Positions 4,510 to 54,211 of a DNA stretch of 63,060 nt are shown here, in pieces. Both the position numbers and the translations under genes were made by a program. The notes under the pieces were generated by a model. The model searched no databases. It was given only the letters and a program-made list of their open reading frames with translations, and had not been told where the DNA came from. Location of the stretch: the NCBI GenBank assembly GCA_024278315.1, contig JAJRTL010000076.1:1-63060 (forward strand), written 5' to 3'. Origin of the DNA: Planctomycetota bacterium (GTDB lineage Bacteria > Planctomycetota > UBA1135 > GCA-002748355). How positions within the stretch are numbered: position 1 is the first letter of the stretch; each line of letters begins with the position of its first letter.

Positions 4510-4586
4510 CCCGAGTACATGGGGTCAGACCCTATTTCTCCGGGTGAAACACCCGGAGAAATAGGGTCTGACCCCATGTACTCGGG
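4510..4586. repeat. 37-bp perfect inverted repeat with a 3-nt spacer, intergenic
   Basis: CCCGAGTACATGGGGTCAGACCCTATTTCTCCGGGTG-aaa-CACCCGGAGAAATAGGGTCTGACCCCATGTACTCGGG. It lies between the stop of the 4606-6726 gene and the start of the 2553-4460 gene, both on the minus strand. Confidence 0.95.
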
Positions 4587-14687: not shown

Positions 14688-16337
14688 ATGACACTGAGCA
14701 CTCGACTTTTCTCTCTCTCCGGCACAGCGCTCCTGCTCTGCTGCTCTCTGGGCCTCTCGTCGCCCCAACTCCCTGCACAGCAAGGGGGTTACTCGCTCTT
14801 CGGCGCTGGCTGCGGCCCCACAACGGCCATCAGCGGCTCGACCAACAACATGACCTGCGCCAGCCCGGCCGGCGCGAGGGCCAACGGCAAGAACTACTAC
14901 GCCATCTCCTGTAGAGAGAAGGTCACCAAGACCCTCTCCAGCGTGACCTTCCGGATGCAGGGGACCCGACCCACGTCGATGCTTCTGGAGCTCTGGCTGG
15001 CGGACAAGACGGGTCGGCCCTCCAAGCGTCTGCGCACCGGACCCATGGTCGTCGGCCGCAACTACGGGAGCTACACGGGCCGATTCTCACCCTACAAGAT
15101 GGCAGCTGGCCAGAACTACGCGATCGTGATCTTCGGGGCCCGGGACATCGTGCTGCCCCAGTGCAAGACCGGCAACCTCGTCGCTGGCTACACCAGGGTC
15201 GTGCCCGGGACCTGGAAGGTCTCCGTCGCTCGCTGGGCCTACCGGGTGAACGCGGGCAGCGTGACCACAGTCCCTACGCTCCGCAACAGCGCGGTGCCCC
15301 TCATCGGTCGTACGATGTCGATCCAGCTCGCCAATGCCCGGCCCAACACGATCTCCTGGCTCAACTTCGGCGATTCCGCCACACGATGGGGACCCTTGTC
15401 GCTGCCACTGCACCTCTCTGCTTTCCAGGCATCGGGCTGATATCTGCGGACATCGCAGCTCTTCAGCGTGGTGCTTCCCACGAACTCCCTCGGTCGGTCT
15501 TCTCTCTCCATCCGCGTGCCCAACCACACCTCCCTCATAGGCAAGCGCTTCTACAACCAAGGCATGATCTATGACAAGGCAGCCAACAGCTTGGGATTCT
15601 CCTTCACCAATGCAGGCTCGGGCCTGGTCGGCAAGCCCTGCGGCAACAGTGCCTCCCGGACCGCCGGGGGCACACTGCGCTTTGCACTGCCACGCGTCAA
15701 CTTCTTCGGCTTCCCAGGACTCAGCATCGCTGGAAACTACACCGGGACCAAGAGGAAGATCTGCTGCACGTCCAACGGCCCACAGGCCTGCTACTACTCC
15801 GGCCGCGGCACGATCACAGGCCAGGTCGGACAGTTTTCGATTCCCGTCACCGCGCTCGGTAAGGTCGTCGACGACATCAATGCCAAGGTATGCACCTTGC
15901 TCAAGGCATCTTCGTCAGGCACGATCACCTGCAGCTCCCTGATGGGCATCAGTGTCAACGGCATCAAGGTCAACGCCGGCGTCAATCTTCTGCGCAACGA
16001 CTGCAATCGGACCAACAGCTACTCGTCCCGCGGATCCATCCAGTTTCCAGGCGGCGTCTTCGGTGGCGTCGACACGACAGCATCGGTCAAGCTTCCCATT
16101 ATCGGCAAGTTCGGATGGAAGTTCAAACTCGGCGTCACGGCGACGCCCGCGGGCTCCTGGGTCGTCTCCGCCAACCGCGCGTGGATGACCATCAAGATCA
16201 CCAGCGTGAGCGTCACAGGCACGACGACGATCCCCGTCCTCAACAAGAAGGTCAACTTCAACTTCAAGATCAACACTCCGAGCCTGACCTTCACGACTCC
16301 CGCCGTCAGAATGCCGACCATCACGATCGGCTGCTAA
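14688..16337 (+). pseudogene. secreted paralog-family protein A, interrupted by one in-frame TGA (15438-15440)
   Basis: ORFs 14688-15440 and 15468-16337 share a frame and are separated only by the TGA. The junction aligns without gaps to the intact paralog 50176-51309. N-terminal signal peptide MTLSTRLFSLSGTALLLCCSLGLSSPQLPAQQ. Confidence 0.7.
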
Positions 16338-16397
16338 CCCGAACGATTCATGACCTCGATGCGTCTGACGGCGTCTTTCGGTCCAGGACCGCGAACC
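16338..16397 (-). mobile_element. solo right-type terminus (60 bp) of the foldback element family
   Basis: CCCGAACGATTCATGACCTCGATGCGTCTGACGGCGTCTTTCGGTCCAGGACCGCGAACC equals the reverse complement of the right 60 bp of the full copies except one base. It starts at the base after the TAA stop (16335-16337). Confidence 0.75.
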
Positions 16398-16441
16398 ATG
16401 ACGGTATCGCGGTTACCACACCGGGAGTAGGTGGATCGTTC

Positions 16442-16527
16442 ACCACGGAAGAGCCGAAGGGCACGAAGGCTGGAACCCGAGAGCGATCTCGCTTCCTCTC
16501 CTTCGTGTCCTTCGTGCGCTTCGTGGT
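16442..16527. repeat. imperfect long hairpin built from CACGAAG-type motifs
   Basis: ACCACGGAAGAGCCGAAGGGCACGAAGG (16442-16469) faces CCTTCGTGTCCTTCGTGCGCTTCGTGGT (16500-16527). Same motif class as the hairpins at 39048-39084 and 62852-62921. Confidence 0.5.
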
Positions 16528-16708
16528 AACATCCTTCTTCCAATCCGATCGTTGGTCCCACATCGAGATCCTGGAGCAACTCCCTCTGTCCGCCAGCGTC
16601 CGTCTCCTTCCTTTCCCCATTCTCCTCTCTCGCCTGTTCGATGTCGATTCATCGCCAAACACGAACGAGACTCCATGATGTGCCTGCGTGCACATACGGG
16701 ACTCAAGG

Positions 16709-20082: not shown

Positions 20083-22320
20083 ATGCACCCTCGAATCCGT
20101 CAACCAGTGAACCACGCGCTCTATCTCGATCTCGAAGTGGCGCTCCCCGGTCCGGGTGATGGCACGCCGAGAGTGCCACCCATACCACCCTTGCGCGAGG
20201 TCGGGGCCGTGCTGGAAGGCCGAGAATTCCGACGCAAGGTCAGCAGCAACGCCAAGGCGGTCCTGCGCGAGTTAGAGCTCTTCGCGCAAGGAGCCGAGTG
20301 GGTCGTCGGTCACAACGTGCTGGGTCACGATGCACCGTTTCTGCGACAGATCGCACCAAACCTCGAGCTGCATCAGCTGCCCTGGGTTGACACCCTCTAT
20401 CTCTCTCCCCTGGCCTTTCCGGAAAATCCCTATCACAGGATCATCAAGGACTACAAGGTCAGAAAGGAGGAGAAGAACAACCCTGTAGCCGATGCAAAGC
20501 TTTCGCGGCGGATCCTCGAAGACGAGGAAGCTGCGTTCGCCAAGCGATTCGGAGCACGAGGGCAGAGCGAGATGCTCTCCCTGTTTCGGACCTGCTTTTC
20601 GAAAGAAGCGGCCTTCGTAGGTCTGACACATTGGTTGGGCGAGAAGGGAGCTCTGGCCTGGGGTGAGGCGCAACTCCGGGATTGGTGCCTGGATCGGTTC
20701 TGCGGCGGCGCAGGAGAGGCCAGCGTCTGCCGGGCAGGATTGCAGACGGTCCTGGACAGGGCGAGTAGCGGGGAGGGGCGAGCAGCGTTGGCGTACGCTT
20801 TCTCGTGGATCCAGATCGCAGGTGCCAATTCCGTGATCTCTCCGTGGGTGCGCCATCGCTTCCCGGAAGTACTTACGATCCTGCGTCGCCTACGGGATGA
20901 GGACTGCGGCTGCGAAGACTGTGCCTGGTGCCGAGTGGAGCACAACCCGGACGGACTGTTGGGACAATGGTTCGGCTTCGATTCCTATCGTCCCGAACCA
21001 CACAACGATGAAGGGAAGAGCCTCCAGCGGAGCATCGTCTGTCACAGCCTACGGGGAGGATCCCACTTGGCCATCTTGCCGACGGGCGGGGGCAAGTCCC
21101 TGTGCTTTCAACTTCCAGCCCTGGTGAGACATCGTCGCAGGGGCCAACTCACGGTGGTGATCTCACCGCTCCAGGCGCTCATGAAAGATCAAGTGGACAA
21201 CCTGAATGAGCGTGCGAAGCTCGGCAATGGCAGGTTGGCTGCAACCCTGAATGGTCTTCAGACTCCGCTCGAGCGAGGTGCGGCATTGCAGGACGTCGTG
21301 ATGGGCGATGCAGCCATGCTCTATCTCAGCCCCGAGCAGCTGCGCAATCGAAATGTGCAAAGGGTCTTGGCGCAGCGAGAGATCGGAGCCTGGGTCTTGG
21401 ACGAGGCACACTGCCTCTCGGGGTGGGGACATGACTTTCGACCCGACTATCTCTACGTAGCCAAGGTCATCCGCAAGCTATGCGGTCTGGCCAAGCCTGC
21501 GGCGGGGGTGGATCCCAAGGAAACGGATAGCCATCAGCTACCAGTTGTCACCTGCCTGACGGCGACGGCCAAACAGGAAGTCATCAAAGAGATCGTCCAG
21601 CACTTCCGAGAAGAGTTGGGTATCGAGCTCGCGGTCTTCGAAGGCGGCACGGATCGCGAGAACCTCGAGTTCACAGTGCGATCTGTCGGGAAGGGCGAGA
21701 AGTTCGCACTGGTCTGCCAATACCTGGAGGAGGCGATCTCACCCACTGCGGCCAGCTCCGGGTCGGCCATCATCTACCACTCGACACGGCAGTCGGCCGA
21801 TGATCTAGCCCTGCGCCTGGCAAGAGATCGCAACCTCCGCGTCCGCAGCTATCACGCTGGCCTGGATTCCGCAAAGCGAAAGGAGACCCAAATACTCTTC
21901 AGTACGAACCAACTCGATGTCGTCTGCGCGACGAACGCATTCGGGATGGGCGTAGACAAGGACAATGTGCGACTCGTGCTCCACTATGACATTCCGGGAT
22001 CCTTGGAGAACTACATCCAAGAAGCGGGCAGGGCTGGCCGCGACCAGCAAGGCGCTCTCTGTGTGTTGCTCTATAACGAGGAGGATCTGGATGCCCAGTT
22101 CCGTCTTGGTTCCTTCTCGAGACTCACGCGCAAAGACATCGCCGAGATCCTGCGTGCCATCCGCAAGCGAAGGTCCAGGCACGATCACCAAATCGTGATG
22201 ACTCCGGGTGAGATTCTGCGCGTGCCCGGAACACAAACGACATTCGGCACCGAGGACAGAGATGCCCCGACGCGAGTCAAGACGGCAGTGTCTTGGCTCG
22301 AGAGACAGGAGTTCCTGTAG
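20083..22320 (+). CDS. DEDDh 3-prime-5-prime exonuclease domain fused to a RecQ-family helicase core
   Basis: N-terminal exonuclease motifs: LDLE (Exo I), GHNVLGHDAPFL (Exo II), HRIIKD (H-x4-D, Exo III). Helicase motifs: PTGGGKS, DEAH (VLDEAHCLSGWGHDFRPDY), LTATA, QEAGRAGRD. Ends at TAG 22318-22320. Confidence 0.85.
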   Translation: MHPRIRQPVNHALYLDLEVALPGPGDGTPRVPPIPPLREVGAVLEGREFRRKVSSNAKAVLRELELFAQGAEWVVGHNVLGHDAPFLRQIAPNLELHQLPWVDTLYLSPLAFPENPYHRIIKDYKVRKEEKNNPVADAKLSRRILEDEEAAFAKRFGARGQSEMLSLFRTCFSKEAAFVGLTHWLGEKGALAWGEAQLRDWCLDRFCGGAGEASVCRAGLQTVLDRASSGEGRAALAYAFSWIQIAGANSVISPWVRHRFPEVLTILRRLRDEDCGCEDCAWCRVEHNPDGLLGQWFGFDSYRPEPHNDEGKSLQRSIVCHSLRGGSHLAILPTGGGKSLCFQLPALVRHRRRGQLTVVISPLQALMKDQVDNLNERAKLGNGRLAATLNGLQTPLERGAALQDVVMGDAAMLYLSPEQLRNRNVQRVLAQREIGAWVLDEAHCLSGWGHDFRPDYLYVAKVIRKLCGLAKPAAGVDPKETDSHQLPVVTCLTATAKQEVIKEIVQHFREELGIELAVFEGGTDRENLEFTVRSVGKGEKFALVCQYLEEAISPTAASSGSAIIYHSTRQSADDLALRLARDRNLRVRSYHAGLDSAKRKETQILFSTNQLDVVCATNAFGMGVDKDNVRLVLHYDIPGSLENYIQEAGRAGRDQQGALCVLLYNEEDLDAQFRLGSFSRLTRKDIAEILRAIRKRRSRHDHQIVMTPGEILRVPGTQTTFGTEDRDAPTRVKTAVSWLERQEFL

Positions 22321-22401
22321 AGAGATCTCAATATCGTTGGCGTCTTCAGTGGCAAGGCCCGGCTCAACTCCCTCGCAGACGCCGAGCGCCGCATCGCCGC
22401 G

Positions 22402-25401
22402 ATGGGGCTGCCATCCCTCAAGCGAGAGCTCTTCCATGCCCTCTTTGCGAGGATCTTCGCCTGCGACACGACAGACTCCATGAGCGTCGACGATCTTGCG
22501 GCACTACCGGAATACCGAATCTACCACGACGCCCGAGCCTCGAAGGCAGAGGCCCCGGAGAGCACAAGGCCCGTCGCTGAATCCTTGGAGATCCTCTCCC
22601 TACTGCGAGAGATGGTGGAAGTCGGCCTTCTAGATGAGTCCCAGAGCTACCGTGCCCTGGTACGATACAAGGTCACAAATCCATCCCAACGCATCCTGGA
22701 GGAAGCCATCGCGAGAGAGATATGGCTCTTGCAACTCCTCGCAGAGCTTCACCCGGATCTGCAGTGTGGTGAGAGGAGCGTGCTGTCGATCCGCAAGGTC
22801 AGCCAGGAGTTGCAGAACCGTGAGCAGTCGGTCGCGCCCGAGGAGATCTCCGCGATACTGATGAATCTCGCTCGTGAGGGGAGAGATCCGCATGGATCGG
22901 CGGGCTTGATCACAACCAAGGTTCTTTCACCGGATCGCCTCCTGCTGACACTCAAACGTGACTGGGCGGAGATTCGGGATCAGGTGACTGTCGCACGACG
23001 ATTGTCCACGGCCCTTCTCCGTGCCGTGATGACCCGCATCCCCGAAGGCACGCCACGTTCCAAGGAGTGCAGCGTCGACTTCACTGACAAGGACCTCCTT
23101 GAGGTACTGAGCGTACAACCCGGGCTCGAAGACTCCACAGAGTCACGCAGCAGGATGCTGGATACCTGCCTCCTCTATCTCCACGAACTGGGGGCCATGA
23201 GGCTCAAATCAGGCCTGGCCTTCTTCCGGCAGGCGATGACCATGACGCTTCGTCAGGATGCGAGACCTCAGTTCACGAAAGAGGATCATGCACCATTGGC
23301 GGATCACTACGGTCTCAAGCGCAGGCAGGTCCACATCATGGGTCGCTACGCAGAACTCATGGAGAACAACCCGGACGATGGTGCCTCCTTCGTCCGGGAG
23401 TACTTCCAATTGCCAGACCAGGAGTTCTTGACCCGTCACTTCCCCAGGGACAAGACCCTGCTCGAGAAGGGCGCTACTCGCGCCACGATTCGCAAGATCG
23501 TAGGCCCTCTGACGCAAGAGCAGAGGCGACTCGTCGAGGCACCCCTGGAGTCCTCCACATTGGCACTCGCAGGTCCCGGGTCGGGCAAGACGCGAGTCCT
23601 GGTGCATCGTGTGGCGTGGCTGCTGAGCGTGGAGCAGGTGCAAAGCCATGAGTTGCTGGTGCTTTGCTTCAACCGACGCAATGTCCTGGAGCTCCGGCGG
23701 CGACTCAAGCATCTGGTGGGACCCCGCGCACGGTTCGTTTCCATCTACACCTACCATGGGCTCGCCATGAGGCTCTTGGGCCGCAGCTTCCAGGATCTCG
23801 AGAGTGGTCAGGCGCCCAAGAATTTCGATGGACTACTGAAGGAGGCCTGCGCACGCCTCCACGCCCCTGACCTGGACGAGGAAGGGTCTCTGCGAGACCG
23901 CATCATCGCCGGTTTTCGCTACCTCCTCATCGATGAGTACCAGGATATCGACGGTGCACAGTACGACCTCGTGGCAGCTCTGGCAGGGCTCAGGGCGAAG
24001 GATGCCGATACCCGGCTGGCCGTGCTCGCTGTCGGCGATGACGACCAGGGCATCTATGACTGGCGAGGTGCCAATGTGGAGTATCTGCGGCGATTCGAGG
24101 AGGAGTACGACGCAAGACGACACTCCCTGCTGACGAATCATCGTTCCACACGCTCGATCGTCGATGGCTCGCAAGCCTTCATTGCTCAGAACGGCCATCG
24201 ACTGAAGCGTAGAGAGATTCTCAAGTCAGCTCAGAGCCGTTCGCCGACGCCAGGTCTCTATGACGCGCGTGACACATCGCCGGTCGCAGCAGAACGCCCG
24301 GTGCACATGCTCCAAGTAGAAGATGAGCAGGGCCAGGCCATCCAGACCCTGGCTGTCTTGGAGGACATGCGTCAGCACCTGACACTCGAAGGAGAGCCGC
24401 CTCCCTGGTCCTGTTTCGCCGTCTTGGCCCGAAGGTGGCAAGACCTCGAGCCGGTGCGATCACTTGCGGATGAGAAGAAGATACCGGTTGACTGGGCCAA
24501 GGACCGTGAGCTCGAGTATTCGCCAGGTCGTGTGCGAGAGGTGCTCCTCTTCATGGATCACCTCAAGTCGAGACGAAAGCAGGATGGGCACATCCCTCAT
24601 GCCGAGTTGGGGCAGATCCTCCGTGCGCTTGCTGGACCCAGGCACAAACGCCATTGGTGGCGCTACGTCCAGAATCTCCTCCAGGCATGGGCGGACGAGG
24701 CGGGTCGGGGCGAAGCAGATCTGGACGACCTCCAGAACTACCTGTGGGGACTCATCCACGAGGAACGTTACACTCCCCAAACCAGTGATGGTCTCTACCT
24801 CGGCACCGTGCACAGCGCCAAAGGTCTCGAGTTCCCCGGAGTCTGTGTTCTCGGCGGAGATTGGCAACCCAACCACAATGAGACCCTGGATCAGGTCCGC
24901 CGCCTCTACTACGTCGGGATGACACGCGCAGAATGTGAGCTGGCCCTCTTCGATCGCCGCGACCTTCCTCATGGCTTGATGAAGGACATCCACCTCCCCT
25001 GCCTGGAGCGCCGACGCATCCCAACCTCCCAGAGGCCCCTCCCCCGCATCCGTGAGCATCTGTCTCTAGGTCTCACGGACCTCTATCTCGACTTCGCTGG
25101 CCGCAAAACCCTATCCGACCCCATCCATCCAGCCCTGCTGGAGCTCCAGGAAGGAGACCCTCTCACGCTCCGACGCAAGGCTTCCTACCTCCTCCTCTTC
25201 GACAGCCAGGATCGCGCCGTCGCCTCCCTGAGCAAGAGAGCACGCGAACAGTGGCTCCCTCGATACACAGCGCCCATCCCCCTCACGGTGGAAGCTCTCA
25301 TCCTACGTAAGTCCACAGATGGCTCTTCAGCGTACCAACACCAGCTGAAAGTCCCCCAGTGGTGGGTGCCGATCTGCACGACGCGGAGTGTTGCACGGTA
25401 G
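22402..25401 (+). CDS. UvrD/Rep-family (SF1) helicase with a ~370-aa N-terminal extension
   Basis: Motifs AGPGSGKT, LLIDEYQD, TNHRSTRSIV, TVHSAKGLEFP, YVGMTRA. Same frame as the upstream RecQ ORF, with no stop between the TAG at 22320 and this ATG. Confidence 0.85.
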   Translation: MGLPSLKRELFHALFARIFACDTTDSMSVDDLAALPEYRIYHDARASKAEAPESTRPVAESLEILSLLREMVEVGLLDESQSYRALVRYKVTNPSQRILEEAIAREIWLLQLLAELHPDLQCGERSVLSIRKVSQELQNREQSVAPEEISAILMNLAREGRDPHGSAGLITTKVLSPDRLLLTLKRDWAEIRDQVTVARRLSTALLRAVMTRIPEGTPRSKECSVDFTDKDLLEVLSVQPGLEDSTESRSRMLDTCLLYLHELGAMRLKSGLAFFRQAMTMTLRQDARPQFTKEDHAPLADHYGLKRRQVHIMGRYAELMENNPDDGASFVREYFQLPDQEFLTRHFPRDKTLLEKGATRATIRKIVGPLTQEQRRLVEAPLESSTLALAGPGSGKTRVLVHRVAWLLSVEQVQSHELLVLCFNRRNVLELRRRLKHLVGPRARFVSIYTYHGLAMRLLGRSFQDLESGQAPKNFDGLLKEACARLHAPDLDEEGSLRDRIIAGFRYLLIDEYQDIDGAQYDLVAALAGLRAKDADTRLAVLAVGDDDQGIYDWRGANVEYLRRFEEEYDARRHSLLTNHRSTRSIVDGSQAFIAQNGHRLKRREILKSAQSRSPTPGLYDARDTSPVAAERPVHMLQVEDEQGQAIQTLAVLEDMRQHLTLEGEPPPWSCFAVLARRWQDLEPVRSLADEKKIPVDWAKDRELEYSPGRVREVLLFMDHLKSRRKQDGHIPHAELGQILRALAGPRHKRHWWRYVQNLLQAWADEAGRGEADLDDLQNYLWGLIHEERYTPQTSDGLYLGTVHSAKGLEFPGVCVLGGDWQPNHNETLDQVRRLYYVGMTRAECELALFDRRDLPHGLMKDIHLPCLERRRIPTSQRPLPRIREHLSLGLTDLYLDFAGRKTLSDPIHPALLELQEGDPLTLRRKASYLLLFDSQDRAVASLSKRAREQWLPRYTAPIPLTVEALILRKSTDGSSAYQHQLKVPQWWVPICTTRSVAR

Positions 25402-29312: not shown

Positions 29313-30476
29313 ATGTTCAAGGTCTACCTCCTCTCTACGCTCGCAGTCACTGCATCACTGGGCCTCTCCCAGGCCAGCACGACACTCCCCAAAGGGTTCG
29401 ACAAGACCCAGGGCACGTCCTATTTCTGGAGTGGATTCAGCGTCGCACCAACAACAAATCTCGACTACAAGTACTACACTTCGAGAAGCGTCTTCCTCTA
29501 CGACTCCTCGACATTCCCTTGGAATCCGAAGAGTGCCAAGGTCATCGACAAGATCAGCTTCCGGCGGTCGCATTCGAATCCCGCTGCGACAGCTGCGGCC
29601 CACAAGGCCAAGTGGGTCGTCATCATATCGACGAGCAACCAACCGGCTCATCGTCCGAACACGAAGTTCGATGACAACCATGGCAGCAACAAGAAAGTCG
29701 TGTTCGGAGCCAAGGGCCCCCAGGAGGTGAAGTTCCTGGCCACGCCACAACCCAAGGCCTTCACGACGGCACCTTTCGATGTGACGGTGGATATCACCAA
29801 CTTCCTGGTGCTTCCCAACACCAAGACCCTCGTCATCGAAATCCGCAGCTACAGCAGTGACGTTCGTTTCGGTGACTGGTATGTGGATTCGGCCATCTAC
29901 CCGGGCACCGGCTACAACGGTGGTGGCTACACGCTGTTCTACTCGACGCACTGTCTCGCCCCTCGGGCTTTCTACTCGGCCCGTGCCAGCTATCTCAATG
30001 GCCACCTCGCTCACATCTGGAGGACCGGTCGGAAAGGCGGCTTGCCGGTCATCGGCCTGGCAGGGACTCGAATGACGACAGGTATCAAGGTGCCCAACAC
30101 GACCTGCGAGTGGTACATCAACCCGATGATCACAGCGGTCACCCTGACAGCCAATGGTCCCGGGCACGCCACGAATCCTGGTCAAGGCACTGCATACCTG
30201 GACTGGGGCCCCATCCCACCTATCGCCTCCCTGGTCGGAATCAAGGTGGCTCACCAGGCTCTCATCATCGACCCCAGCGCCAACAAGCTAGGCATCGGCA
30301 TCACCCGTGGCGGTGAGACATCGATTGGAACCGCGTACGACAACAAGTACGTCAACGTGGGGGCCACCTACTCCTTCGGCCCACAGAACCACCGCTACAA
30401 CAAGTTCATGGACGCTGACAAGGAAACCTACGGACGCTACTTCTACCGTCGGGTCCCCATCATCAACATCCAGTAG
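29313..30476 (+). CDS. secreted paralog-family protein B
   Basis: Start at MFKVYLLSTLAVTASLGLSQAS (ATG 29313). It shares the family layout: an N-terminal LPKGF..T.G segment, a conserved Cys pair (STHCLAP ... NTTCEWY) and a C-terminal Q.LIIDPSANKLGI..T.GG module. Confidence 0.75.
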   Translation: MFKVYLLSTLAVTASLGLSQASTTLPKGFDKTQGTSYFWSGFSVAPTTNLDYKYYTSRSVFLYDSSTFPWNPKSAKVIDKISFRRSHSNPAATAAAHKAKWVVIISTSNQPAHRPNTKFDDNHGSNKKVVFGAKGPQEVKFLATPQPKAFTTAPFDVTVDITNFLVLPNTKTLVIEIRSYSSDVRFGDWYVDSAIYPGTGYNGGGYTLFYSTHCLAPRAFYSARASYLNGHLAHIWRTGRKGGLPVIGLAGTRMTTGIKVPNTTCEWYINPMITAVTLTANGPGHATNPGQGTAYLDWGPIPPIASLVGIKVAHQALIIDPSANKLGIGITRGGETSIGTAYDNKYVNVGATYSFGPQNHRYNKFMDADKETYGRYFYRRVPIINIQ

Positions 30477-30562
30477 CTGTCCGCGGGCAGGGAGTGGGGA
30501 CAGCAGTGAGGGGGGAGGTTGACCGGGGTTTCGAAGGTACCCTTGTAAGAAAGGTAGGTTAG

Positions 30563-30782
30563 CCCGGACTATTCATGAGATCGTTGTGAGCAAAATCGAG
30601 ATCGGCGCAGCCGAGCTCGATTTTGCGGTCTGACGAGCGCATTTCGAGTTCAGGGCGGCTGCGCGAGATATGAGGCGACCCAAGAGGGTCGTCGAATCGA
30701 AGCCATGCCGAGCGAACCGATAGGTTCGCGGTCCTGGACCGAAAGACGCCATCAGACGCATCGAGGTCATGAATCGTTCGGG
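30563..30782 (+). mobile_element. foldback MITE-like element, full copy 2 (220 bp)
   Basis: Same termini as copy 1. Flanks TTAG (left) and TTGG (right). The internal hairpin at 30590-30626 carries two compensatory base-pair swaps relative to copies 1 and 3. Confidence 0.85.
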
Positions 30783-30841
30783 TTGGGAGATCCTCGCGAA
30801 GCCACGGGACTTCTGGAAAACATCGATGGCAGTCTGATGTA

Positions 30842-43981: not shown

Positions 43982-44728
43982 ATGTCCATGGATCCTGATC
44001 GTGAACTCATAAAACGTTGCCAAACGCTTGGTAGCCAAGAGTTTGAGTCCGCTTTCAGGCAGCTCTATGACAGATACAAGGACAGGGTTTACAGCCTCGC
44101 CTACCGCATCACGGGCAACGCCACCGAGGCGCTCGACGCGGCACAAGAGGCATTCATCCTGCTCTACCAGAAGATTGGGAGCTTCAAGTTCGACTCGAAG
44201 TTCTCGAGCTGGCTCTATCGGCTCGTCGTGAACGCCTCCATTGACCACCTGAGGCGAGTCAAGACGCGACGATGGGAGTCATCAACCTCTCTCTCCTCCT
44301 CTCCAACCACCTCTATACAGGACTCGTCAGGACCAGCCCTTTCCTCTTCCCAAATGGGAGCGGGCTCGCTTGGCGAAGAGCCGCTTCATCTTCCATCGGA
44401 CCCAGCGCAGGGCCCACAACGTCTCGCGCAAGTCCAGGACCAGGCCGATGCCATCCAGCTCGGCATCAACCAACTCTCCGACAAACTCAAAGTCATCACC
44501 GTGCTCCGCTACCAGCAAAACCTGAGCTACGAAGAGATAGGCGAGGTCCTCGAGATCTCTCCTGGCACGGTGAAGTCGCGCATTGCACGGGCCCACATCG
44601 CCCTCGCCACGCATCTCGCACACCTGCATCCGAACATGGATGGGCATCCGAACATGGATAGGGATGGCAGTGTGGATAGGGATGGCAGTGTGGATGCGAA
44701 GATTCCAGGAGGCAGCGATGTCTCCTGA
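43982..44728 (+). CDS. ECF sigma-70 family factor with a repeat-containing C-terminal tail
   Basis: Region 2 (DAAQEAFILLYQKIGSF, SWLYRLVVNASIDHLRR) and region 4 (LSYEEIGEVLEISPGTVKSRIARAHIAL), with a long linker and a hexapeptide-repeat tail. Confidence 0.85.
   Translation: MSMDPDRELIKRCQTLGSQEFESAFRQLYDRYKDRVYSLAYRITGNATEALDAAQEAFILLYQKIGSFKFDSKFSSWLYRLVVNASIDHLRRVKTRRWESSTSLSSSPTTSIQDSSGPALSSSQMGAGSLGEEPLHLPSDPAQGPQRLAQVQDQADAIQLGINQLSDKLKVITVLRYQQNLSYEEIGEVLEISPGTVKSRIARAHIALATHLAHLHPNMDGHPNMDRDGSVDRDGSVDAKIPGGSDVS
44627..44698 (+). repeat. 4 x 18-bp tandem repeat inside the sigma-factor 3-prime end
   Basis: CATCCGAACATGGATGGG / CATCCGAACATGGATAGG / GATGGCAGTGTGGATAGG / GATGGCAGTGTGGATGCG, encoding HPNMDG HPNMDR DGSVDR DGSVDA. 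Confidence 0.9.
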
Positions 44729-45377
44729 TTTCAACAGGAACCAGAATTCCGGGGATCGGGATCAGGGGAAACCTGTCCGCGACGCATTCCTTCGTGAACT
44801 CTTCGAAAAGACCCAACCCGACTTGGAGGCCAAAGCCAGCGAGTCCATGCCTCGGGATCTGGATGCACTCTTCGAGAAGCGCAGGTCTGCTTCCCATCAG
44901 GACAACACCATCAAGGACGATGGAGCTCCTGATGGCCATATGGCCAGCCTGTTGGAAGAACTCTTCTCACATGACCTTCAGCACGACTCCCAGATGGGCA
45001 GCCCCGCCCGACTCGATGCCGCCACCGCATCGGAGCTGGATCGTCGTGTTGCCGAGGGTATTCGAGAAGACAGGCCTCAGCCGATCCCCTTGGGTCGGAT
45101 GAGAGCACCACAGTGGTCCGGCTTGGCTGCAGCAGGCTTGATCGGCATGCTCTACCTCTGGGGTCAGGGCTATCTGAGCGGTGATGCAGACGGAGGAAGA
45201 CCCCTCTTCGTGCTCATGGACGTGGATCAGCCACTGAATACCAGCATGGATCCAGGTGCCATTTCTTTGGCGGCAGCGGGGGCCATCGATTTCGTCGAAG
45301 GCAAGACTCCGGGTAGGGCATCTCCCACTCAGACATCTCCCACTCGGGCGCAGCCCAAGAAGGGAGGCGAAGAGTGA
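44718..45377 (+). CDS. putative anti-sigma factor (single-pass membrane protein)
   Basis: ATG 44718 is preceded by CCAGGAGG and overlaps the sigma stop by 11 nt. One TM (WSGLAAAGLIGMLYLW). The call rests on position after the ECF sigma gene; there is no recognisable zinc-binding anti-sigma motif. Confidence 0.55.
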   Translation: MSPDFNRNQNSGDRDQGKPVRDAFLRELFEKTQPDLEAKASESMPRDLDALFEKRRSASHQDNTIKDDGAPDGHMASLLEELFSHDLQHDSQMGSPARLDAATASELDRRVAEGIREDRPQPIPLGRMRAPQWSGLAAAGLIGMLYLWGQGYLSGDADGGRPLFVLMDVDQPLNTSMDPGAISLAAAGAIDFVEGKTPGRASPTQTSPTRAQPKKGGEE

Positions 45378-46528
45378 TGCGCTCTTTCTCTACACGGAGC
45401 AAGGTCTGCCTGGCTGCAGCCACCGCGGCACTCTGCCTCTCGGGCTCCTGGCTGGGTGCACAGATCACTGTCAAGGGCAGCCAGACCGCTGATGTCGAGA
45501 AGATCACCAAGGATGGCAACAACCTCTTCAGGGTATTGTCGCAGACCTTTGATCGCGTCGCCCTCACAGGGGAGCGCTACTGGTACAGCCTGCTGCCGGC
45601 GAGCGGCACGGGCAGCACTGCACAAAAGGCCCGGCTCCTCCGTTACCGCGAGAGCATCTCGATTCGTCCCAAGAGCCTCTCCAAGCTTCCACAACTCTCG
45701 TCTCCCAAGCGCCGTGCTGACTTCAGCCTGACCCTGCTGGAGCCAGGAGAGATCGGGGCCCAGATGTCGCCCACTGAGAAGAGCCTACGCAAGGCAGCTT
45801 TCCGGGATCGCTCAGGCTTCCTGCACTACCAGAGAGACTTCCGGATCCAGGATGTCGAGCAGGCCTCCAAGAACTACCGTGTCGTCCCCATGGGGGCCTG
45901 GCTCCACAGAAGGGCTACCGGCGGTCCCAGGGTCGCACGCATCTTCGACCTGTTCCCCAAGGGTGAACACGCCAAGAGTTCCGGTGCCTCGATCTTCCGC
46001 TTAGTCGTGGACCTCGAACATCAGATCGTGCTGGACTGGATCCGCTTCTCGATCGAAGGCCGATTGATCTCTGCTCTGAGCTACGACGAGTTCTCCCTGG
46101 GAACCAATGTCAGCTTCGACCCGGCAACCAAGTGGTGGAAGCCGTGGATCGATGTCGAGCCATACGAGAACACGACTGAGGCGAGCCGCAAGGTGGGGTT
46201 CACAATTGCGGAGCCAGGCAGCTTGCCCCAGGGCTTCCATCGCCTTGAGATCCGCTCGGCCAAGGAACCAATCCTTGGCACGCTCTACTCGGTCCTGATC
46301 TACACCGATGGCGTTCGCAACTTCTTCTTGCTTCAACACCGTAACAAGATCAGCTCGCTGAGCACGAGCAACGGAGGCACGAGCTCCGAACTCGTTACCG
46401 TCAAGCGCTTCCGCATGGGCCCTGTGACCCAATACGATGCGGAGTACAAGGGCATGACCTATCTCCTGCTCGGCCATGAGGAAAGGGGCGACGGAGTACC
46501 GACCCTCCTCCAAAGCCTGGTCCGTTAG
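45374..46528 (+). CDS. secreted protein, RseB/MucB- or LolA-like by context and a weak C-terminal pattern
   Basis: GTGATG start overlapping the upstream stop. Signal peptide MMRSFSTRSKVCLAAATAALCLSGSWLGAQ. The C-terminal segment FTIAEPGSLPQGFHRL...LIYTDGVRNFFLL resembles the RseB-type LP.GF...Y.DG pattern. Confidence 0.55.
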   Translation: MMRSFSTRSKVCLAAATAALCLSGSWLGAQITVKGSQTADVEKITKDGNNLFRVLSQTFDRVALTGERYWYSLLPASGTGSTAQKARLLRYRESISIRPKSLSKLPQLSSPKRRADFSLTLLEPGEIGAQMSPTEKSLRKAAFRDRSGFLHYQRDFRIQDVEQASKNYRVVPMGAWLHRRATGGPRVARIFDLFPKGEHAKSSGASIFRLVVDLEHQIVLDWIRFSIEGRLISALSYDEFSLGTNVSFDPATKWWKPWIDVEPYENTTEASRKVGFTIAEPGSLPQGFHRLEIRSAKEPILGTLYSVLIYTDGVRNFFLLQHRNKISSLSTSNGGTSSELVTVKRFRMGPVTQYDAEYKGMTYLLLGHEERGDGVPTLLQSLVR

Positions 46529-46796: not shown

Positions 46797-48353
46797 ATGA
46801 AAGCCACAATCTCTATCTTGGCTGCGGGCCTTTGCCTCACTGCAGCAGTCTCTGCACAAACGAACTACTCGGTTGTGACCTCTTCGAGATTCGATGCGAC
46901 CTCCTTGGATGACAAGGGGGGCGAACTCTCGAAGATCCGTCCCTTCGGACTTTGGCAGTTCACTCCATCCAAAACAGGAACCGCTGCGTACCACGTGCTC
47001 AGCTCCAGCAACCTGTCAGCCCTCATGGGGGATCCCGATGGAGACGGAAAGCTTGCTGTCTTCAACGGCATGAAGGATGCGGGCACCTTTGCCATCAGCC
47101 CGTTCATCAAGGACAAGGACCGGAAGAAGAACGATCCGCGGCTCCTTTTCTGGACCGTGAAAGACTACGGAAAGCTCAACACGACGATCCATGTCTTCCG
47201 TAATGGCAAGAAGCACGTCGTTCGCCCTGGTGACTTCGTCCGGATCAATGCCAATGGCAATGCTGAGTTCTTCATCACACAAGACCTGATCATGAAGGGT
47301 GTGGGTGCCCAGAAGGGAGCCTTCATCAAGGGCGTCACAGCACTTTGTCAGAGCTCGACAGGAGCCCTGTTCTTTGCACCTGGACATGGGCGCAATGCTG
47401 CCAACACGGGCAGCGGTGGCGGCTTTTGGATCGGAAGCACCTTCATCTACGACGGAGGTGTCTGCACCATCCCGGCTTCCGCCATCAAGTACGACAACGC
47501 GGGCAATGTCGTGGACGTCAAGGGGTCCAGCGCCACGTTGCTCTTCAACGAGATCGGCAGTGGGCCTCTGTCCCAACTCAGCGCCAGGGACATGATCAAG
47601 AACTCCAACTTCAGGAGAACGGACGGACTCAACCAGAATACATCACTCTGGATGACCGGGGTCGAGATCGACCCCAACGGTGGCACCTTCAAGGATTGGG
47701 GTGGCAATGTGCAACCCAACCTGATCTTCACCTTTGAAAACTACAGGATCCAACTCGGGACGGCTTGGTTCCCCAGCTGGGCCGGCACGATCTTCTCGAC
47801 CCGGCCCACGAAGGGAGTCACAGCCATGGGAAGCCTGGCCGTCATCAATGGCGTGGAGATGGGCGTCACCACCAGCAAGGCGACGGGAGCCTGGACCGGC
47901 CTCAAGAACAGTCCCAAGCCTCCATGCCTGCGGGGCCTTGCGCTGCTGCAAGCCAACCACAAGCCCCTAGCTCCCAGCGGCCCCATCGGATCCACGACCA
48001 TCAATGATGGCGTCGTCACAATGGGTGTGGACCCCAGCATCGTCCTGGCCTTCCAGGACTCCAATCGCGTCGCTCCCGGGCTTCTCATGCTGGCCGCATC
48101 CGCCGGCAAGGGGCAGCGCTCGATCGGCCTGGATCTGGGAGTCATCCTGAGCGGCTACGCCGATGTGCATGTGCTGAGATTCGGCCCCAGCATCAATGTG
48201 GCCGGCGTCAGCGACATCAAGGGCCGTCTCACGGTCACCATACCGACACCCACGAACACGGCACTCAAGGGAGTCACGCTCAACTGGCAGATGCTCTTCG
48301 TGCGCGGCACGACCCTCAATATGACTCCCCCGGTCCTCACCGAGATCCGTTAG
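46797..48353 (+). CDS. secreted paralog-family protein C (divergent N-terminal domain, shared C-terminal module)
   Basis: Signal peptide MKATISILAAGLCLTAAVSAQ. The C-terminal RLTVTIPTPTNTALKGVTLNWQMLFV module is shared with the other family members. The TAG stop is followed at the next base by an element terminus. Confidence 0.75.
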   Translation: MKATISILAAGLCLTAAVSAQTNYSVVTSSRFDATSLDDKGGELSKIRPFGLWQFTPSKTGTAAYHVLSSSNLSALMGDPDGDGKLAVFNGMKDAGTFAISPFIKDKDRKKNDPRLLFWTVKDYGKLNTTIHVFRNGKKHVVRPGDFVRINANGNAEFFITQDLIMKGVGAQKGAFIKGVTALCQSSTGALFFAPGHGRNAANTGSGGGFWIGSTFIYDGGVCTIPASAIKYDNAGNVVDVKGSSATLLFNEIGSGPLSQLSARDMIKNSNFRRTDGLNQNTSLWMTGVEIDPNGGTFKDWGGNVQPNLIFTFENYRIQLGTAWFPSWAGTIFSTRPTKGVTAMGSLAVINGVEMGVTTSKATGAWTGLKNSPKPPCLRGLALLQANHKPLAPSGPIGSTTINDGVVTMGVDPSIVLAFQDSNRVAPGLLMLAASAGKGQRSIGLDLGVILSGYADVHVLRFGPSINVAGVSDIKGRLTVTIPTPTNTALKGVTLNWQMLFVRGTTLNMTPPVLTEIR

Positions 48354-48388
48354 CCCGAACGATTCATGACCTCGATGCGCCTGACGCC
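48354..48388 (-). mobile_element. solo right-type terminus (about 35 bp) of the foldback element family
   Basis: CCCGAACGATTCATGACCTCGATGCGCCTGACGCC starts at the base after TAG 48351-48353. Left flank is TTAG. Confidence 0.7.
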
Positions 48389-48398
48389 ATCGAGCTTC

Positions 48399-48443
48399 AT
48401 GAAGAAACCCCCATCGGGACAGTCCCGGTGGGGGTTTCTTCAT
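48399..48443. terminator. 15-bp perfect hairpin between convergent paralog genes
   Basis: ATGAAGAAACCCCCA-(15 nt)-TGGGGGTTTCTTCAT. No U-tract. Lies between the 3-prime ends of 46797-48353 (plus) and 48986-50092 (minus). Confidence 0.5.
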
Positions 48444-48548
48444 AGCCTGAAAGAGAGAAGGATGGGAGAAGCTGTGGTGCCCCACACTCATCGCTCACCC
48501 CATCCCACGCTCATTGGCCTCATGGCTCACCGGGCTCATGCAGCATAA

Positions 48549-48767
48549 CCCGGATGATTCATGACCTCGTTGTGAGCAAATGCGAGATCGGCTGCGCCGA
48601 TCTCGCATTTGCGGTCTGACGAGCGCATTTCGAGTTCAGGACGGCTGCGCGAGATATGAGGCGACCCAAGAGGTCGTCGAATCGAAGCCATGCCGAGCGA
48701 ACCGATAGGTTCGCGGTCCTGGACCAAAAGACGCCGTCAGACGCATCGAGGTCATGAATCGTTCGGG
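48549..48767 (+). mobile_element. foldback MITE-like element, full copy 3 (219 bp)
   Basis: Termini CCCGGATGATTCATGACCTCGTTG and reverse complement CCCGAACGATTCATGACCTCGATG. Flanks ATAA / ATAG. One base shorter than copies 1 and 2 (CAAGAGGTCG versus CAAGAGGGTCG). Confidence 0.85.
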
Positions 48768-48775
48768 ATAGGAAG

Positions 48776-48868
48776 GTGCTGAACTCACTGCCCAGGACAT
48801 CTTGCGATGTCATCCACGCGCGTGCTGGCATGATCGAACCATCGTGAACTCACTTCTCTCTCACGGAG
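48776..48868 (+). repeat. second interspersed repeat (about 93 bp), copy X
   Basis: GTGCTGAACTCACTGCCCAGGACATCTTGCGATGTCATCCACGCGCGTGCTGGCATGATCGAACCATCGTGAACTCACTTCTCTCTCACGGAG matches the reverse complement of 62919-63009 with few mismatches. Confidence 0.75.
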
Positions 48869-48985
48869 CCACAGAGAAGACACGGAGTGCATCAAGCAGC
48901 CCCGCCATTCAAGGCGACCTTTGAGGCCGCCTCCGTGCCCCCTGTGAGAGAGGAGGAGTCCATCGAACGACAGGGCCCTCCAGGA

Positions 48986-50092
48986 TCACTTCTTCGTGAT
49001 CTGGGTCACGAGACCAACACCGCGATCGACGTGCCCAACAGAGGAGTTGGAGCTGTTGGACAACCTGTAGACCAGGGTGGAATCGAGACCAGTCTGGCCG
49101 AGGTTTCTACCCATCCGGATCTGCACCCCATTGGAAAGTGCGATTGGGAAGGCAGGATTGACGCGCTTGTCCAAGGCCAACCATTGGAAGTACATCGTCT
49201 TGTTCACCAAGGACTTCAAACCAGGAAGTAGCAAGTCCAACTGGGCCGAGCCTTGGCTGCGTGTCTGAGCCGTAAAGGTCATGTCGTAGCTGGCGTAGAG
49301 CGAGCATCATGTCAACCCGAGTCCAGAGAGACTCAGCGGGAGCTTGATCCCACTCCACGTGCTGTTGCTTGCCCCCAGGATGCCGACAACGGGGCTGAGA
49401 GAAGGACCCTCATAGAGCAGCAAGGAGAGAGGGGTTGAGCTTCCGGGATTGGTGGCGATCGCGTAGGCGCGATTCTTGCCCAAGGGACAGGCGGTACCAA
49501 ACGCCTTGGCATCGCCATGATCGATCTGGCTCCTCACGGCATCCACCCAGTAGCCATGGATGCGATACCGGGATTCGTAGACGTAATGATCGATCGCCAG
49601 GTTGGGGCCCGTGAAGGCAAAGGGGAAATCGAGGGGAAACTTGATGTCGAACCCAGGCAAGCCCGAGGCAGGATTCTTGAGAACCGGGAAGTTGACTCGC
49701 TTGGCGAGGAACACGGTCCGCAGCGTGTTCAGCTTCCCGGTTCCAGGCTTGAGAAACCTCTCCATCTTGGTCGACGTCGTGGGCCAGAAGTTTCCCATGC
49801 GCACGGTCCAGATGGGAGTTGTGGACCGCCTCAAGCTGAGTGTCGGGAAGGCCTTCCCGTCTCTCCGGTAGGCGATGGCTGTGATGGAGCTGTTGAAGGT
49901 CAGCTTGCCGGCCAACAGGACAGAGCCGATGTACTGGGTCATGCGGCAACGGTCGTAGCCGAAGGGTCGCAGCTCCAGGGTGTTGCCCTCCTTCGTTGTA
50001 TTCGCTGAAGGAATGACGAAGGAACTGCTCGTCTGGGAAGGAAGGGATGCGGCGAGGAGGCCAGCCGCTGCAAGAAGGCTCGTGCTGCGCAT
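48986..50092 (-). pseudogene. secreted paralog-family protein D, interrupted by one in-frame TGA (49307-49309)
   Basis: ORFs 49307-50092 and 48986-49282 share a frame. The junction GLGLT*CSLYASYDM aligns to SLGLKGCSLQASMDI of the adjacent intact paralog. Signal peptide MRSTSLLAAAGLLAASLPSQ. Confidence 0.7.
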
Positions 50093-50175
50093 TGTCGAAA
50101 GTCCTGGAGGCAGTGAAGGGAAGAGGGGAGCGCTGAGTATAGCGCAATTGCCCCCCTCACTGAGGGACGATCGGC

Positions 50176-51309
50176 CTACTTGAGGGTGAACTGGGTCACC
50201 AAGGCCATCCCTGGGTCCACAAATCCATACAACCCGTTCACCAGGTTGTTCAACCCAATGCCGTATACCAGGGCAGCATCCACGTTGCCGATATTACCGA
50301 TCGTCGCCCCGGAGCGGACCTCGACACCGTTGGAGAGGGTCAATGGGAACGCAGGACTGATCCTCTTGTCCAGATTGATCCACTGATTCCAGAAGGTCAC
50401 GTTGGCGTGCCTGGCGGTTGGAGGAAGTGGAATCGTGAGGTTGGCACGCCCACTCTCGTTGGTCGGCACGGGATAGAAGATATCCATGCTGGCCTGAAGC
50501 GAACAACCTTTGAGGCCCAAGGAGGACAGGTCCCAGGGGAGCTTCACAGCACCCCAACTCGTCTTGCTGACACCGATCACACAGAGAGCGGCGCTCTGCT
50601 TGGGACCATCGAATTCATAGAGCTCGATGGCTCCTCCACCGGGATTCGAGGACAGGGCATACGCGCGATTGAGACCGGGAGGGCAGGACGAGCCATAGGT
50701 CTTGGAGCTACCCTGATCGACCTTGCCACGATGGGCATCGATGAAGTAGCCGAAGATCTGATTGCGGCTCTCATAGACCGAATGGTCGATGACAAGATTC
50801 GTGCCGTTGTGCACGAAGGGGATGTCCAGAGGGAACTTGAGTGTAAAAGCGGGTAGGACCCCCTTGGTGTGCGTCAGGTTCGGGAATTTGACTCTCTTTG
50901 CCGTAAAGGCGGTCCGGACGATGGGACCTCGGCCACGCCCCCCGGACGGACGCGTATGGAACGGCAAGGGTTTCGATGCACTCGTCGTCATGTTGCCCAT
51001 GCGAATCGTCCACGTGGGGTCAGTAGTACCTCTCCGGGGAGGCCTGACCATGGTGAGCCCCACGAAGGTCGAGCCATCCCTTCGATACGCCAAGGCCGTG
51101 ATGGTATTCCCCTTGGCAATTGCCCCCTTGAGCATCGAGGCCCCAATGTGCTGCGCCACACGCACGCGGTTGTAGCTGAAGGGGCGCATCTCGAAGGCGT
51201 TGCCCTCCACCTTGGCGAGGCTTTGGGGGATCGTCACCGTCTTGGTTTGGGCCAGAAGCGCTGGGCAGAACACCAGCAGAGAGACAGCAGGAAGGATGGC
51301 AGGCTTCAT
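50176..51309 (-). CDS. secreted paralog-family protein E (intact reference member)
   Basis: Start at MKPAILPAVSLLVFCPALLAQ (ATG 51309). Collinear with paralog D over its whole length. Contains the GC motif and the C-terminal FWNQWINLD...LSNG module. Confidence 0.8.
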   Translation of the reverse strand: MKPAILPAVSLLVFCPALLAQTKTVTIPQSLAKVEGNAFEMRPFSYNRVRVAQHIGASMLKGAIAKGNTITALAYRRDGSTFVGLTMVRPPRRGTTDPTWTIRMGNMTTSASKPLPFHTRPSGGRGRGPIVRTAFTAKRVKFPNLTHTKGVLPAFTLKFPLDIPFVHNGTNLVIDHSVYESRNQIFGYFIDAHRGKVDQGSSKTYGSSCPPGLNRAYALSSNPGGGAIELYEFDGPKQSAALCVIGVSKTSWGAVKLPWDLSSLGLKGCSLQASMDIFYPVPTNESGRANLTIPLPPTARHANVTFWNQWINLDKRISPAFPLTLSNGVEVRSGATIGNIGNVDAALVYGIGLNNLVNGLYGFVDPGMALVTQFTLK

Positions 51310-53215: not shown

Positions 53216-54211
53216 ATGAGTCACAGAGTTCTCTTCTATGGGCTTGGGCCCATCGGCCTGAGGGCGGTCCAATTGGCACAGGGCCGCGAGGATCTGGAAA
53301 TCGTTGGTGCCGTCGATATCGATCCGGCCAAAGTTGGAAAGGACCTTGGCGATCTCCTGGAGACCAACGCGCAACTTGGGATCCAGATCAGCGATGACGC
53401 CATGACCTGCATCCAGGAGACCAGGCCGGATCTCATCGTACACTGCACATCCTCTTGGTTGCCCAAGGTGGAGACCCAGCTCCTCGCCTGCCTTTAAGCA
53501 GGTGTCAACATCGTCTCCTCGACCGAGGAACTGCTTTGGCCTTGGCTCTCGAATCCAGAGATTGCAGAGAGGCTCGACAAGGCAGCTCTAGCCTCGGGTG
53601 CCGCGATCCTCGGAACCGGTGTCAACCCGGGATTCCTCATGGACAGCCTCCCTCTCTTTGCCAGCTCGGTTTGCTGGGAAGTCAGAAAGGTTGAATGTCG
53701 ACGGGCTCTCGATGCTGGACAACGCCGTATCCCCTTCCAGAACAAGGTCGGAGTCGGCCTTGCACTGGATGAGTTCGAGAGCAAGGCGGCTACGGGTGCC
53801 TTCGGGCACGTGGGGCTCGCCGAATCGATTGCCATGCTCGGTGCTGGTCTTGGATTCGAGATCGACACGATCGATCAGGGAGTAGAACCCATCATTGCCA
53901 AGACGACTGTGACCGTGGGCGAACAGGTCGTGCCAGAGGGCCGCGTCCTGGGTCTGCGCAACACGGGCACGGGTTCGAGCAAGGGTGAGACCTTGATCAG
54001 CATGGATTTCCAGGCCTACTTCGGTTGCGAAAACCCCATGGATGAGATGATCCTGGATTCGGATCCGCCCATGCATCTCCAGATCCCAGGAGGCACGCAT
54101 GGCGATCTGGCGACAGCAGCCATGTTGATCAACGCAGGCGTACGCTTGCTCGAGACTGGAGCAGGCCTCAAGACCATGCTTCAAGTTCCTCTTCCCCGCG
54201 TAGGCCCCTGA
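53216..54211 (+). pseudogene. DapB-like NAD(P)-dependent amine dehydrogenase/reductase (COG3804 type), interrupted by one in-frame TAA (53495-53497)
   Basis: ORFs 53216-53497 and 53639-54211 share a frame. Read-through gives ...VETQLLACL*AGVNIVSSTEELLWPW...AAILGTGVNPGFLMDSLPL..., a continuous Rossmann N-domain (VLFYGLGPIGL) plus DapB-like C-domain. Confidence 0.75.

Follow-up and report, generated by a model that had tools for sequence, protein, structure and literature searches.

A set of five genes for secreted proteins, here termed A to E, was examined in a 63,060-nt contig (JAJRTL010000076.1; the whole stretch analysed is referred to as the window) of an uncultured marine Planctomycetota bacterium. 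The contig is part of a metagenome-assembled genome (MAG; assembly GCA_024278315.1) of 518 contigs and 5.16 Mb, with a GC content of 61.7% and a completeness of 85%. A first-pass annotation, made from the letters alone, had described these genes as a five-member paralogous family that occupies three repeat-flanked loci and shares a C-terminal module. Open reading frames (ORFs) were found at all five loci where that annotation had placed them, with genes A (14688..16337; 549 codons and a stop), B (29313..30476; 387 aa) and C (46797..48353; 518 aa) on the plus strand and genes D (48986..50092; 368 codons and a stop) and E (50176..51309; 377 aa, intact) on the minus strand. A and D are not uninterrupted ORFs, as each contains one in-frame TGA. 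The signal peptides attributed to all five proteins were read directly from the translations and are of the Sec type, consisting of a short basic n-region and a hydrophobic core with cleavage between AQ and T, SQ and T or SQ and A.

The five proteins differ in what precedes and follows the shared module. In E, the signal peptide is followed by an N-terminal beta-sandwich (aa ~22-205), the module (aa 232-334; 50308..50616, minus strand) and a 40-aa beta tail. D has the same architecture, with its module at 49109..49417 (minus strand), and the description of D and E as a collinear tandem pair was upheld, as the two genes are adjacent on the minus strand and their products align from end to end with 44% identity. 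A jackhmmer search confirmed that the N-terminal domain is common to B, D and E (B, 1.3e-36), and this ~180-aa domain was also detected in about 30 paralogs of the genome, B included. Gene B combines a signal peptide and an E-type N-domain with a divergent module (30039..30332, plus strand); its nearest paralog lies on contig C409 (68% identity). Gene A encodes a signal peptide, an N-terminal FGAGC motif, an A-type N-domain, the module (aa 210-315; 15315..15632, plus strand; independent E-value 2.8e-26), here too a beta-sandwich, and a Cys-rich extension of ~230 aa. In C, a signal peptide and an unrelated N-terminal part of ~450 aa are followed, at the extreme C-terminus, by the second half of a module (48171..48311, plus strand; profile positions 44-90). 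Proteins of the E/D/B type share a conserved ~40-aa tail after the module, of the form ..YG..G..G.VDPG..LVT(Q/R)FT.K (e.g. window 50179-50300, minus strand). This tail was modelled as beta strands, and strand complementation with the N-domain is one example of a role that it may have.

The extent of the module family was assessed using residues 225-345 of E as the seed of an iterative jackhmmer search of the entire assembly, translated in six frames. A total of 117 copies of a ~108-aa module were recovered in 115 ORFs of the MAG, with two copies per ORF in only two of the 115, and the module is among the most abundant domains of this genome. The family is therefore not one of five members, and the window genes are a small sample of it. 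Membership was tested using a profile of 37 copies from which A, B, C and D had been left out. This profile recovered D (9e-29), A (3e-26), B (8e-10) and C (1.8e-4), i.e. the module score is strong in A, D and E, moderate in B and marginal in C. Presence of the module in all five proteins, as first described, thus holds for A, B, D and E, whereas C shows only a marginal match that is limited to the second half of the module. Within the genome, the C-terminus of the protein lies no more than five residues past the module in 71 of the 108 full copies. The proteins ahead of the module are mutually unrelated and comprise subtilases, LTD (lamin-tail), CotH, beta-helix, PKD/LamG and ELW-type propeller repeats; the Pfam families found among these passengers overall were Peptidase_S8, M4/M36, LTD, CotH, Beta_helix, PKD and Laminin_G_3.

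The module extends well beyond this genome. A profile search of 1.84e9 representative sequences (i.e. clusters at 50% identity) produced 15,113 matches at E ≤ 1e-3 and 6,756 at 1e-10. Among the database matches listed, the module was at the extreme C-terminus in almost every one and was again carried by subtilases and M4/M36 peptidases. Named module-bearing entries read 'hypothetical protein [Planctomycetota bacterium]', and the relatives of E came from MAGs labelled Planctomycetota or uncultured Phycisphaerales. Dozens of copies were present in all ten genomes sampled from the same taxonomic family, and across the phylum the module was found in 27 of 151 sampled genomes, often with at least 31 copies in each. 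The expanded secreted or surface repertoire proposed in the first-pass annotation is borne out by these counts, with more than 100 signal-peptide proteins carrying the module in this genome and dozens per genome across the taxonomic family.

No well-described family emerged from the profile and structure searches, an outcome on which the first-pass annotation, having been unable to assign the module to a named domain family, had made its proposal depend. None of the five proteins matched Pfam or NCBIfam at E ≤ 1, a profile search of PDB sequences with the module returned nothing meaningful and Foldseek comparisons gave no significant match. A literature search yielded no account of a domain of this kind in planctomycetes. 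AlphaFold2 models were all-beta for both the module alone (predicted local distance difference test score, pLDDT, 92.4; predicted template-modelling score, pTM, 0.83) and full-length E (pLDDT 89), and the module is confidently predicted to be an immunoglobulin (Ig)-like beta-sandwich of ~108 aa. The conserved Cys pair is real and co-varying, as the Cys of the 'GC' motif co-occurs with the Cys of a preceding [FY]GxGC strand in 63 of 68 cases as compared to 7 of 37 (odds ratio 54, p = 1e-14). We read the unit as ~145 aa when this preceding strand is counted, with the sandwich probably stapled to it by a disulfide.

The combination of a Sec signal, varied passengers, a folded and disulfide-stapled terminal domain and more than 100 copies per genome points to a localisation tag. 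Surface sorting or anchoring after Sec export is, on this comparative evidence, the most likely role of the module, a role to which we give about an even chance. On this model, the five genes encode Sec-exported all-beta proteins that have the C-terminal beta-sandwich in common; once its passenger had been exported, the module would either direct it to or through the outer membrane or retain it at the cell surface. E, D and B belong to a subfamily with about 30 members per genome and a passenger of ~180 aa that is itself a beta-sandwich, A joins the module to a different N-domain and a Cys-rich extension, and C bears a degenerate module inside a conserved ECF (extracytoplasmic function) sigma operon. 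For the module, the five genes and the stop codons discussed below taken together, this is the best explanation available and is rated slightly better than evens.

Several known systems resemble this arrangement. The closest is the type A C-terminal domain (CTD) of cargo of the Bacteroidota type IX secretion system (T9SS; Por_Secre_tail, PF18962/TIGR04183), which is likewise an Ig-like terminal beta-sandwich of ~80-110 aa found on many unrelated Sec-exported enzymes and adhesins, in dozens to >100 copies per genome. Like this CTD, the module sits at the extreme C-terminus of diverse signal-peptide cargo. The two differ in sequence, as the five proteins lack a match to the family profile (Pfam and NCBIfam, E ≤ 1), and T9SS CTD structures were absent among the top 50 Foldseek matches of the module in the PDB. 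A search with PF18962 found nothing in the MAG, with control genomes equally silent, and TIGR04189, a profile for T9SS machinery (translocon SprA/PorV/PorU), matched neither the 85%-complete MAG nor any control genome. T9SS CTDs are not known to have a conserved disulfide to an upstream FGxGC strand, nor is a T9SS known from the host phylum. The exosortase-, sortase- and rhombosortase-type tags (i.e. PEP-CTERM, MYXO-CTERM, GlyGly-CTERM and LPXTG) are also lineage-expanded C-terminal tags on diverse secreted proteins, but these consist of a motif of ~20-30 aa with a transmembrane helix and a basic tail, whereas the module is a folded, soluble beta domain of ~110-145 aa without a transmembrane segment. 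The bacterial pre-peptidase C-terminal domain (PPC, PF04151), like similar accessory domains of secreted proteases, is a small beta-sandwich attached on the C-terminal side of subtilases and metalloproteases. It forms a family of its own that does not occur on >100 unrelated proteins per genome, and some module-bearing proteins carry PPC as well, with the PPC match upstream of the module. A more specific proposal, which we offer tentatively, is that the module may mark proteins for an undescribed pathway of outer-membrane translocation or surface attachment. This pathway would be confined to certain Planctomycetota lineages (about 18% of sampled genomes) and have >100 substrates per cell, and would be a functional analogue of T9SS CTD sorting that had evolved independently.

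Two sets of observations weigh against a localisation role. Thirty module copies, of the E/D/B type, are followed by a tail of 21-60 aa and the module of A is followed by 230 aa, indicating that the module need not be terminal. Foldseek searches of the PDB with full-length E and with the module alone retrieved generic Ig- and fibronectin type III-like sandwiches (best E 1.5e-3 and 0.03, respectively; template-modelling scores below 0.5, and no higher than 0.48 for the module), and as a generic Ig-like fold is to be expected of a binding module too, the fold does not favour sorting. The main alternative is accordingly that the module binds a ligand, such as a polysaccharide, a particle surface or the cell wall, and tethers secreted enzymes to their substrate without acting as a sorting signal, in which case the E/D/B-type proteins would be two-domain adhesins or binding proteins. 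The Ig-like beta-sandwich is the fold of many carbohydrate-binding modules (CBMs) and adhesin domains, the passengers are mainly degradative enzymes, the position is not always terminal and the expansion in marine planctomycetes is large and lineage-specific, all of which would suit such a function. CBMs are found at either end of proteins, internally and in tandem. Strict C-terminal placing, as seen in the two thirds of full copies located at the last residues and in nearly all of the best database matches, is what sorting tags typically show and CBMs rarely do; in addition, the Pfam CBM families gave no match and double copies are restricted to the two ORFs noted above. A purely ligand-binding function is consequently regarded as doubtful, and sorting or anchoring at the surface remains the favoured role.

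The delivery of degradative enzymes and adhesins to the planctomycete surface is poorly understood, and the module provides a concrete handle on this process. With about 15,000 sequence clusters, and lying outside Pfam, NCBIfam and the PDB, it marks a candidate secretome and could be used for phylogenetic profiling of partner machinery and for reporter fusions.

The genomic context of C, D and E was compared with that in relatives. An ECF-type sigma factor is encoded upstream of C (43982..44728, plus strand), with matches to Sigma70_r2 (PF04542, 2.4e-18) and Sigma70_r4_2 (PF08281, 1.1e-11), i.e. regions 2 and 4 without region 3. Two conserved genes without Pfam matches occupy the interval between the sigma gene and C (44725..46528, plus strand) and encode a putative anti-sigma factor and a 384-aa protein. 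The neighbourhood had been described as an ECF sigma/anti-sigma/RseB-like operon; the sigma factor is supported by Pfam, whereas 'RseB-like' is not, the product of 45374-46528 having no significant match to Pfam profiles, MucB_RseB included. The conserved order consists of the ECF sigma gene, genes for a 228-aa and a ~400-aa protein and a C-like gene on one strand, D and E on the other strand, and then pdxS, pdxT and a DapB-like gene. This order is kept in contigs whose E orthologs have 73%, 44% and 42% identity, with D and E each having its own ortholog. Judged from this synteny across genera and from the separate orthologs of D and E, the D/E tandem pair is old and the C/D/E locus is stable across genera. 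The suggestion that the repertoire is recombining is not supported at this main locus.

Conserved operon structure hints at a link between ECF sigma factors and the genes A and C. Gene C reads in the same direction as the ECF sigma genes, and the sequence of sigma, anti-sigma, unknown and C-like genes is found on one strand in the relatives L018, L019 and L020. In L021 and L022, the ortholog of A is followed after 24 nt by an ECF sigma gene (PF07638), and in L021 this sigma gene is followed, with a 4-nt overlap, by a Ser/Thr kinase gene, such that the A ortholog is first in an operon. In the window, the Ser/Thr kinase is present near A (78% identity); the PF07638 sigma gene is absent, and its place (16338-16687) is taken by ~350 nt of unrelated sequence starting from a repeat terminus. 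The window genes may thus be envelope-stress or signal-responsive targets of adjacent ECF sigma factors, with the sigma factor of 43982-44728 acting on C and, in relatives, the sigma/kinase pair acting on A. D and E lie on the opposite strand beside pdxS, which does not fit such control. We consider this regulation possible rather than probable, and it is compatible with a surface-localisation role of the module.

The repeat that flanks these loci is an element of ~225 nt with terminal inverted repeats (TAACCCGGA..ATTCATGA). It is short, has terminal inverted repeats and occurs in many copies, consistent with a miniature inverted-repeat transposable element (MITE); its lack of ORFs follows from its size. 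The genome contains 338 MITE loci, of which 135 are at least 180 nt long (i.e. near full length). As had been reported, the loci of A, B and C/D each adjoin a copy or terminus: a terminus begins at the TAA stop of A (16334..16397), a full-length copy lies 84 nt downstream of B (30560..30789), a second terminus overlaps the TAG stop of C (48350..48391) and a further full-length copy is located between the 3' ends of C and D (48546..48773). The left end of the element reads TAACCCG.. or TAGCCCG.., and its first bases form the stop codons of A (16335-16337) and C (48351-48353). Across the genome, the distance between the stop codon and an element is 5 nt or less in 112 ORFs. This placement would fit an element whose target site contains TA, as stop codons provide such sites in a GC-rich genome.

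The first-pass annotation had seen in these loci an expanding, recombining surface or secreted protein repertoire. Spelled out, this model has MITE copies flanking the genes and recombining with one another, so that the repertoire would diversify as contingency or variable surface-protein loci do. Besides the copies adjoining A, B and C/D, this model could draw on the loss, exactly at a MITE terminus, of the ECF sigma gene beside A. The expected genome-wide association was found in part: elements lie within 300 nt of the 3' end for 19.7% of the family as compared to 5.5% of all ORFs (odds ratio 4.2, p = 1.5e-7), and this roughly 4-fold enrichment holds within TAA/TAG-ending and within TGA-ending genes, but only about a fifth of family loci are concerned and 80% have no element in that range. 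Synteny of the C/D/E locus extends across genera, and in the closer relative L018 the C-D spacer measures 80 nt and lacks the element. The element itself is widespread and appears to target TA-containing sites at stop codons generally, and among the five genes neither chimeric nor recently converted paralogs were seen. Diversification through MITE recombination is thus improbable.

The in-frame TGA codons of A (15438..15440, plus strand) and D (49307..49309, minus strand) were examined in the light of orthologous sequences. In both genes the same frame is open on either side of the TGA with coding-like codon usage, and both codons fall within the conserved Gly-Cys motif. The TGA of A occupies the column of an invariant Cys, and no interruption is seen in the orthologs of A (45-58% identity; 550-552 aa), which have Cys at this site; the codon is TGC in both orthologs read at the DNA level (i.e. 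P0011 and P0012). The TGA of D replaces an invariant Gly directly before the conserved Cys, where orthologs (47-72% identity; 368-369 aa), again uninterrupted, have GGT or GGA. Other genes carry comparable interruptions. Two further family members are interrupted within the module, by TAG (contig C380) and TAA (contig C454), the DapB-like gene of the window has TAA (53495-53497) where its ortholog has Glu, and a strict genome-wide scan detected more TAG/TAA interruptions, two of which fall within Pfam domains of NuoD and DnaB. The interrupted genes for NuoD, DnaB and a GlmU-like hexapeptide protein are located at C352:4127 (minus strand), C199:10656 (plus strand) and C199:5162 (plus strand), and in each the frame is open and conserved afterwards. 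Since essential genes are interrupted too, consensus errors or very recent mutations are favoured over recoding, and the TGAs of A and D are most likely base-level lesions arising from assembly or consensus errors or from recent pseudogenisation. The changes that could be deduced are all G:C>T:A, namely TGC>TGA in A, GGA>TGA in D, GAA>TAA in the DapB-like gene and TCG>TAG in the C380 member. This pattern suggests consensus errors with an oxidative-damage-type signature or a hypermutator lineage, and bears on any pseudogene or recoding call in this MAG.

Two findings do not sit easily with a lesion origin. The TGAs of A and D lie in adjacent alignment columns, a coincidence with a probability of about 3% for these two and of about 16% if every pairing of the four interrupted copies is allowed for. 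The genome also decodes selenocysteine, containing tRNA-Sec (the selenocysteine tRNA), selA, selB and about nine genes for UxxC-type selenoproteins. A, and possibly D, could on this basis be selenoproteins in which selenocysteine, inserted at the UGA of the Gly-Cys motif, takes the place of the disulfide Cys or stands next to it, as the TGA of A falls exactly on the invariant Cys, both TGAs lie in one motif and the downstream frames are open, conserved and coding-like. Against this, the TGA of D stands for Gly rather than Cys, and none of the orthologs found has a TGA. The selenocysteine insertion sequences (SECIS) of this organism have perfect stems of 5-8 bp with GGUC, CGUGU or similar loops located +20 to +37 nt after the UGA; D lacks a SECIS-like hairpin (z +1.3 and +0.2), and the two hairpins of A are weak (z -0.3 and +0.1) and are encoded by the Cys ortholog as well. 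NuoD, DnaB, the DapB-like gene and the two other family members show similar lesions consisting of a single in-frame TAG or TAA, and the ECF sigma gene is missing from the locus of A as well. Selenocysteine was accordingly rejected as the principal interpretation of A and D on the basis of SECIS, ortholog codons and non-TGA lesions, and is judged highly improbable; base-level lesions are preferred. An alternative genetic code was also rejected, as all three stop codons serve both as terminators and as single interruptions, and a TGA noted in one module copy of another genome, G050, proved to be the ordinary terminator. As a caution, an in-frame TGA at a conserved Cys can mimic a selenoprotein in a selenocysteine-using MAG whilst essential genes carry TAG/TAA lesions.

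Elsewhere in the genome, about nine genes that probably encode genuine selenoproteins were noted (C127:5450, C355:4115, C477:2100 and 5448, C257:3007, C290:8985, C485:4202, C447:13707 and C254:6540). Their motifs are redoxin-like (WUGPC, UVNC and UPPC) or deiodinase-like (TUPPF), and each has a strong hairpin with a GGUC, CGUGU or similar loop at a distance of 20-37 nt from the UGA.

Two other features of the window were recorded. Two long helicase-like ORFs (RecQ/UvrD) at 20083-25401 share one frame and are split only by a TAG (22318-22320). This codon was considered as a further lesion and set aside, as relatives have no gene spanning the junction and the TAG may be a true gene boundary. A perfect inverted repeat of 37 nt (100% complementary) with a 3-nt spacer is present at 4510-4586, between or overlapping long ORFs.

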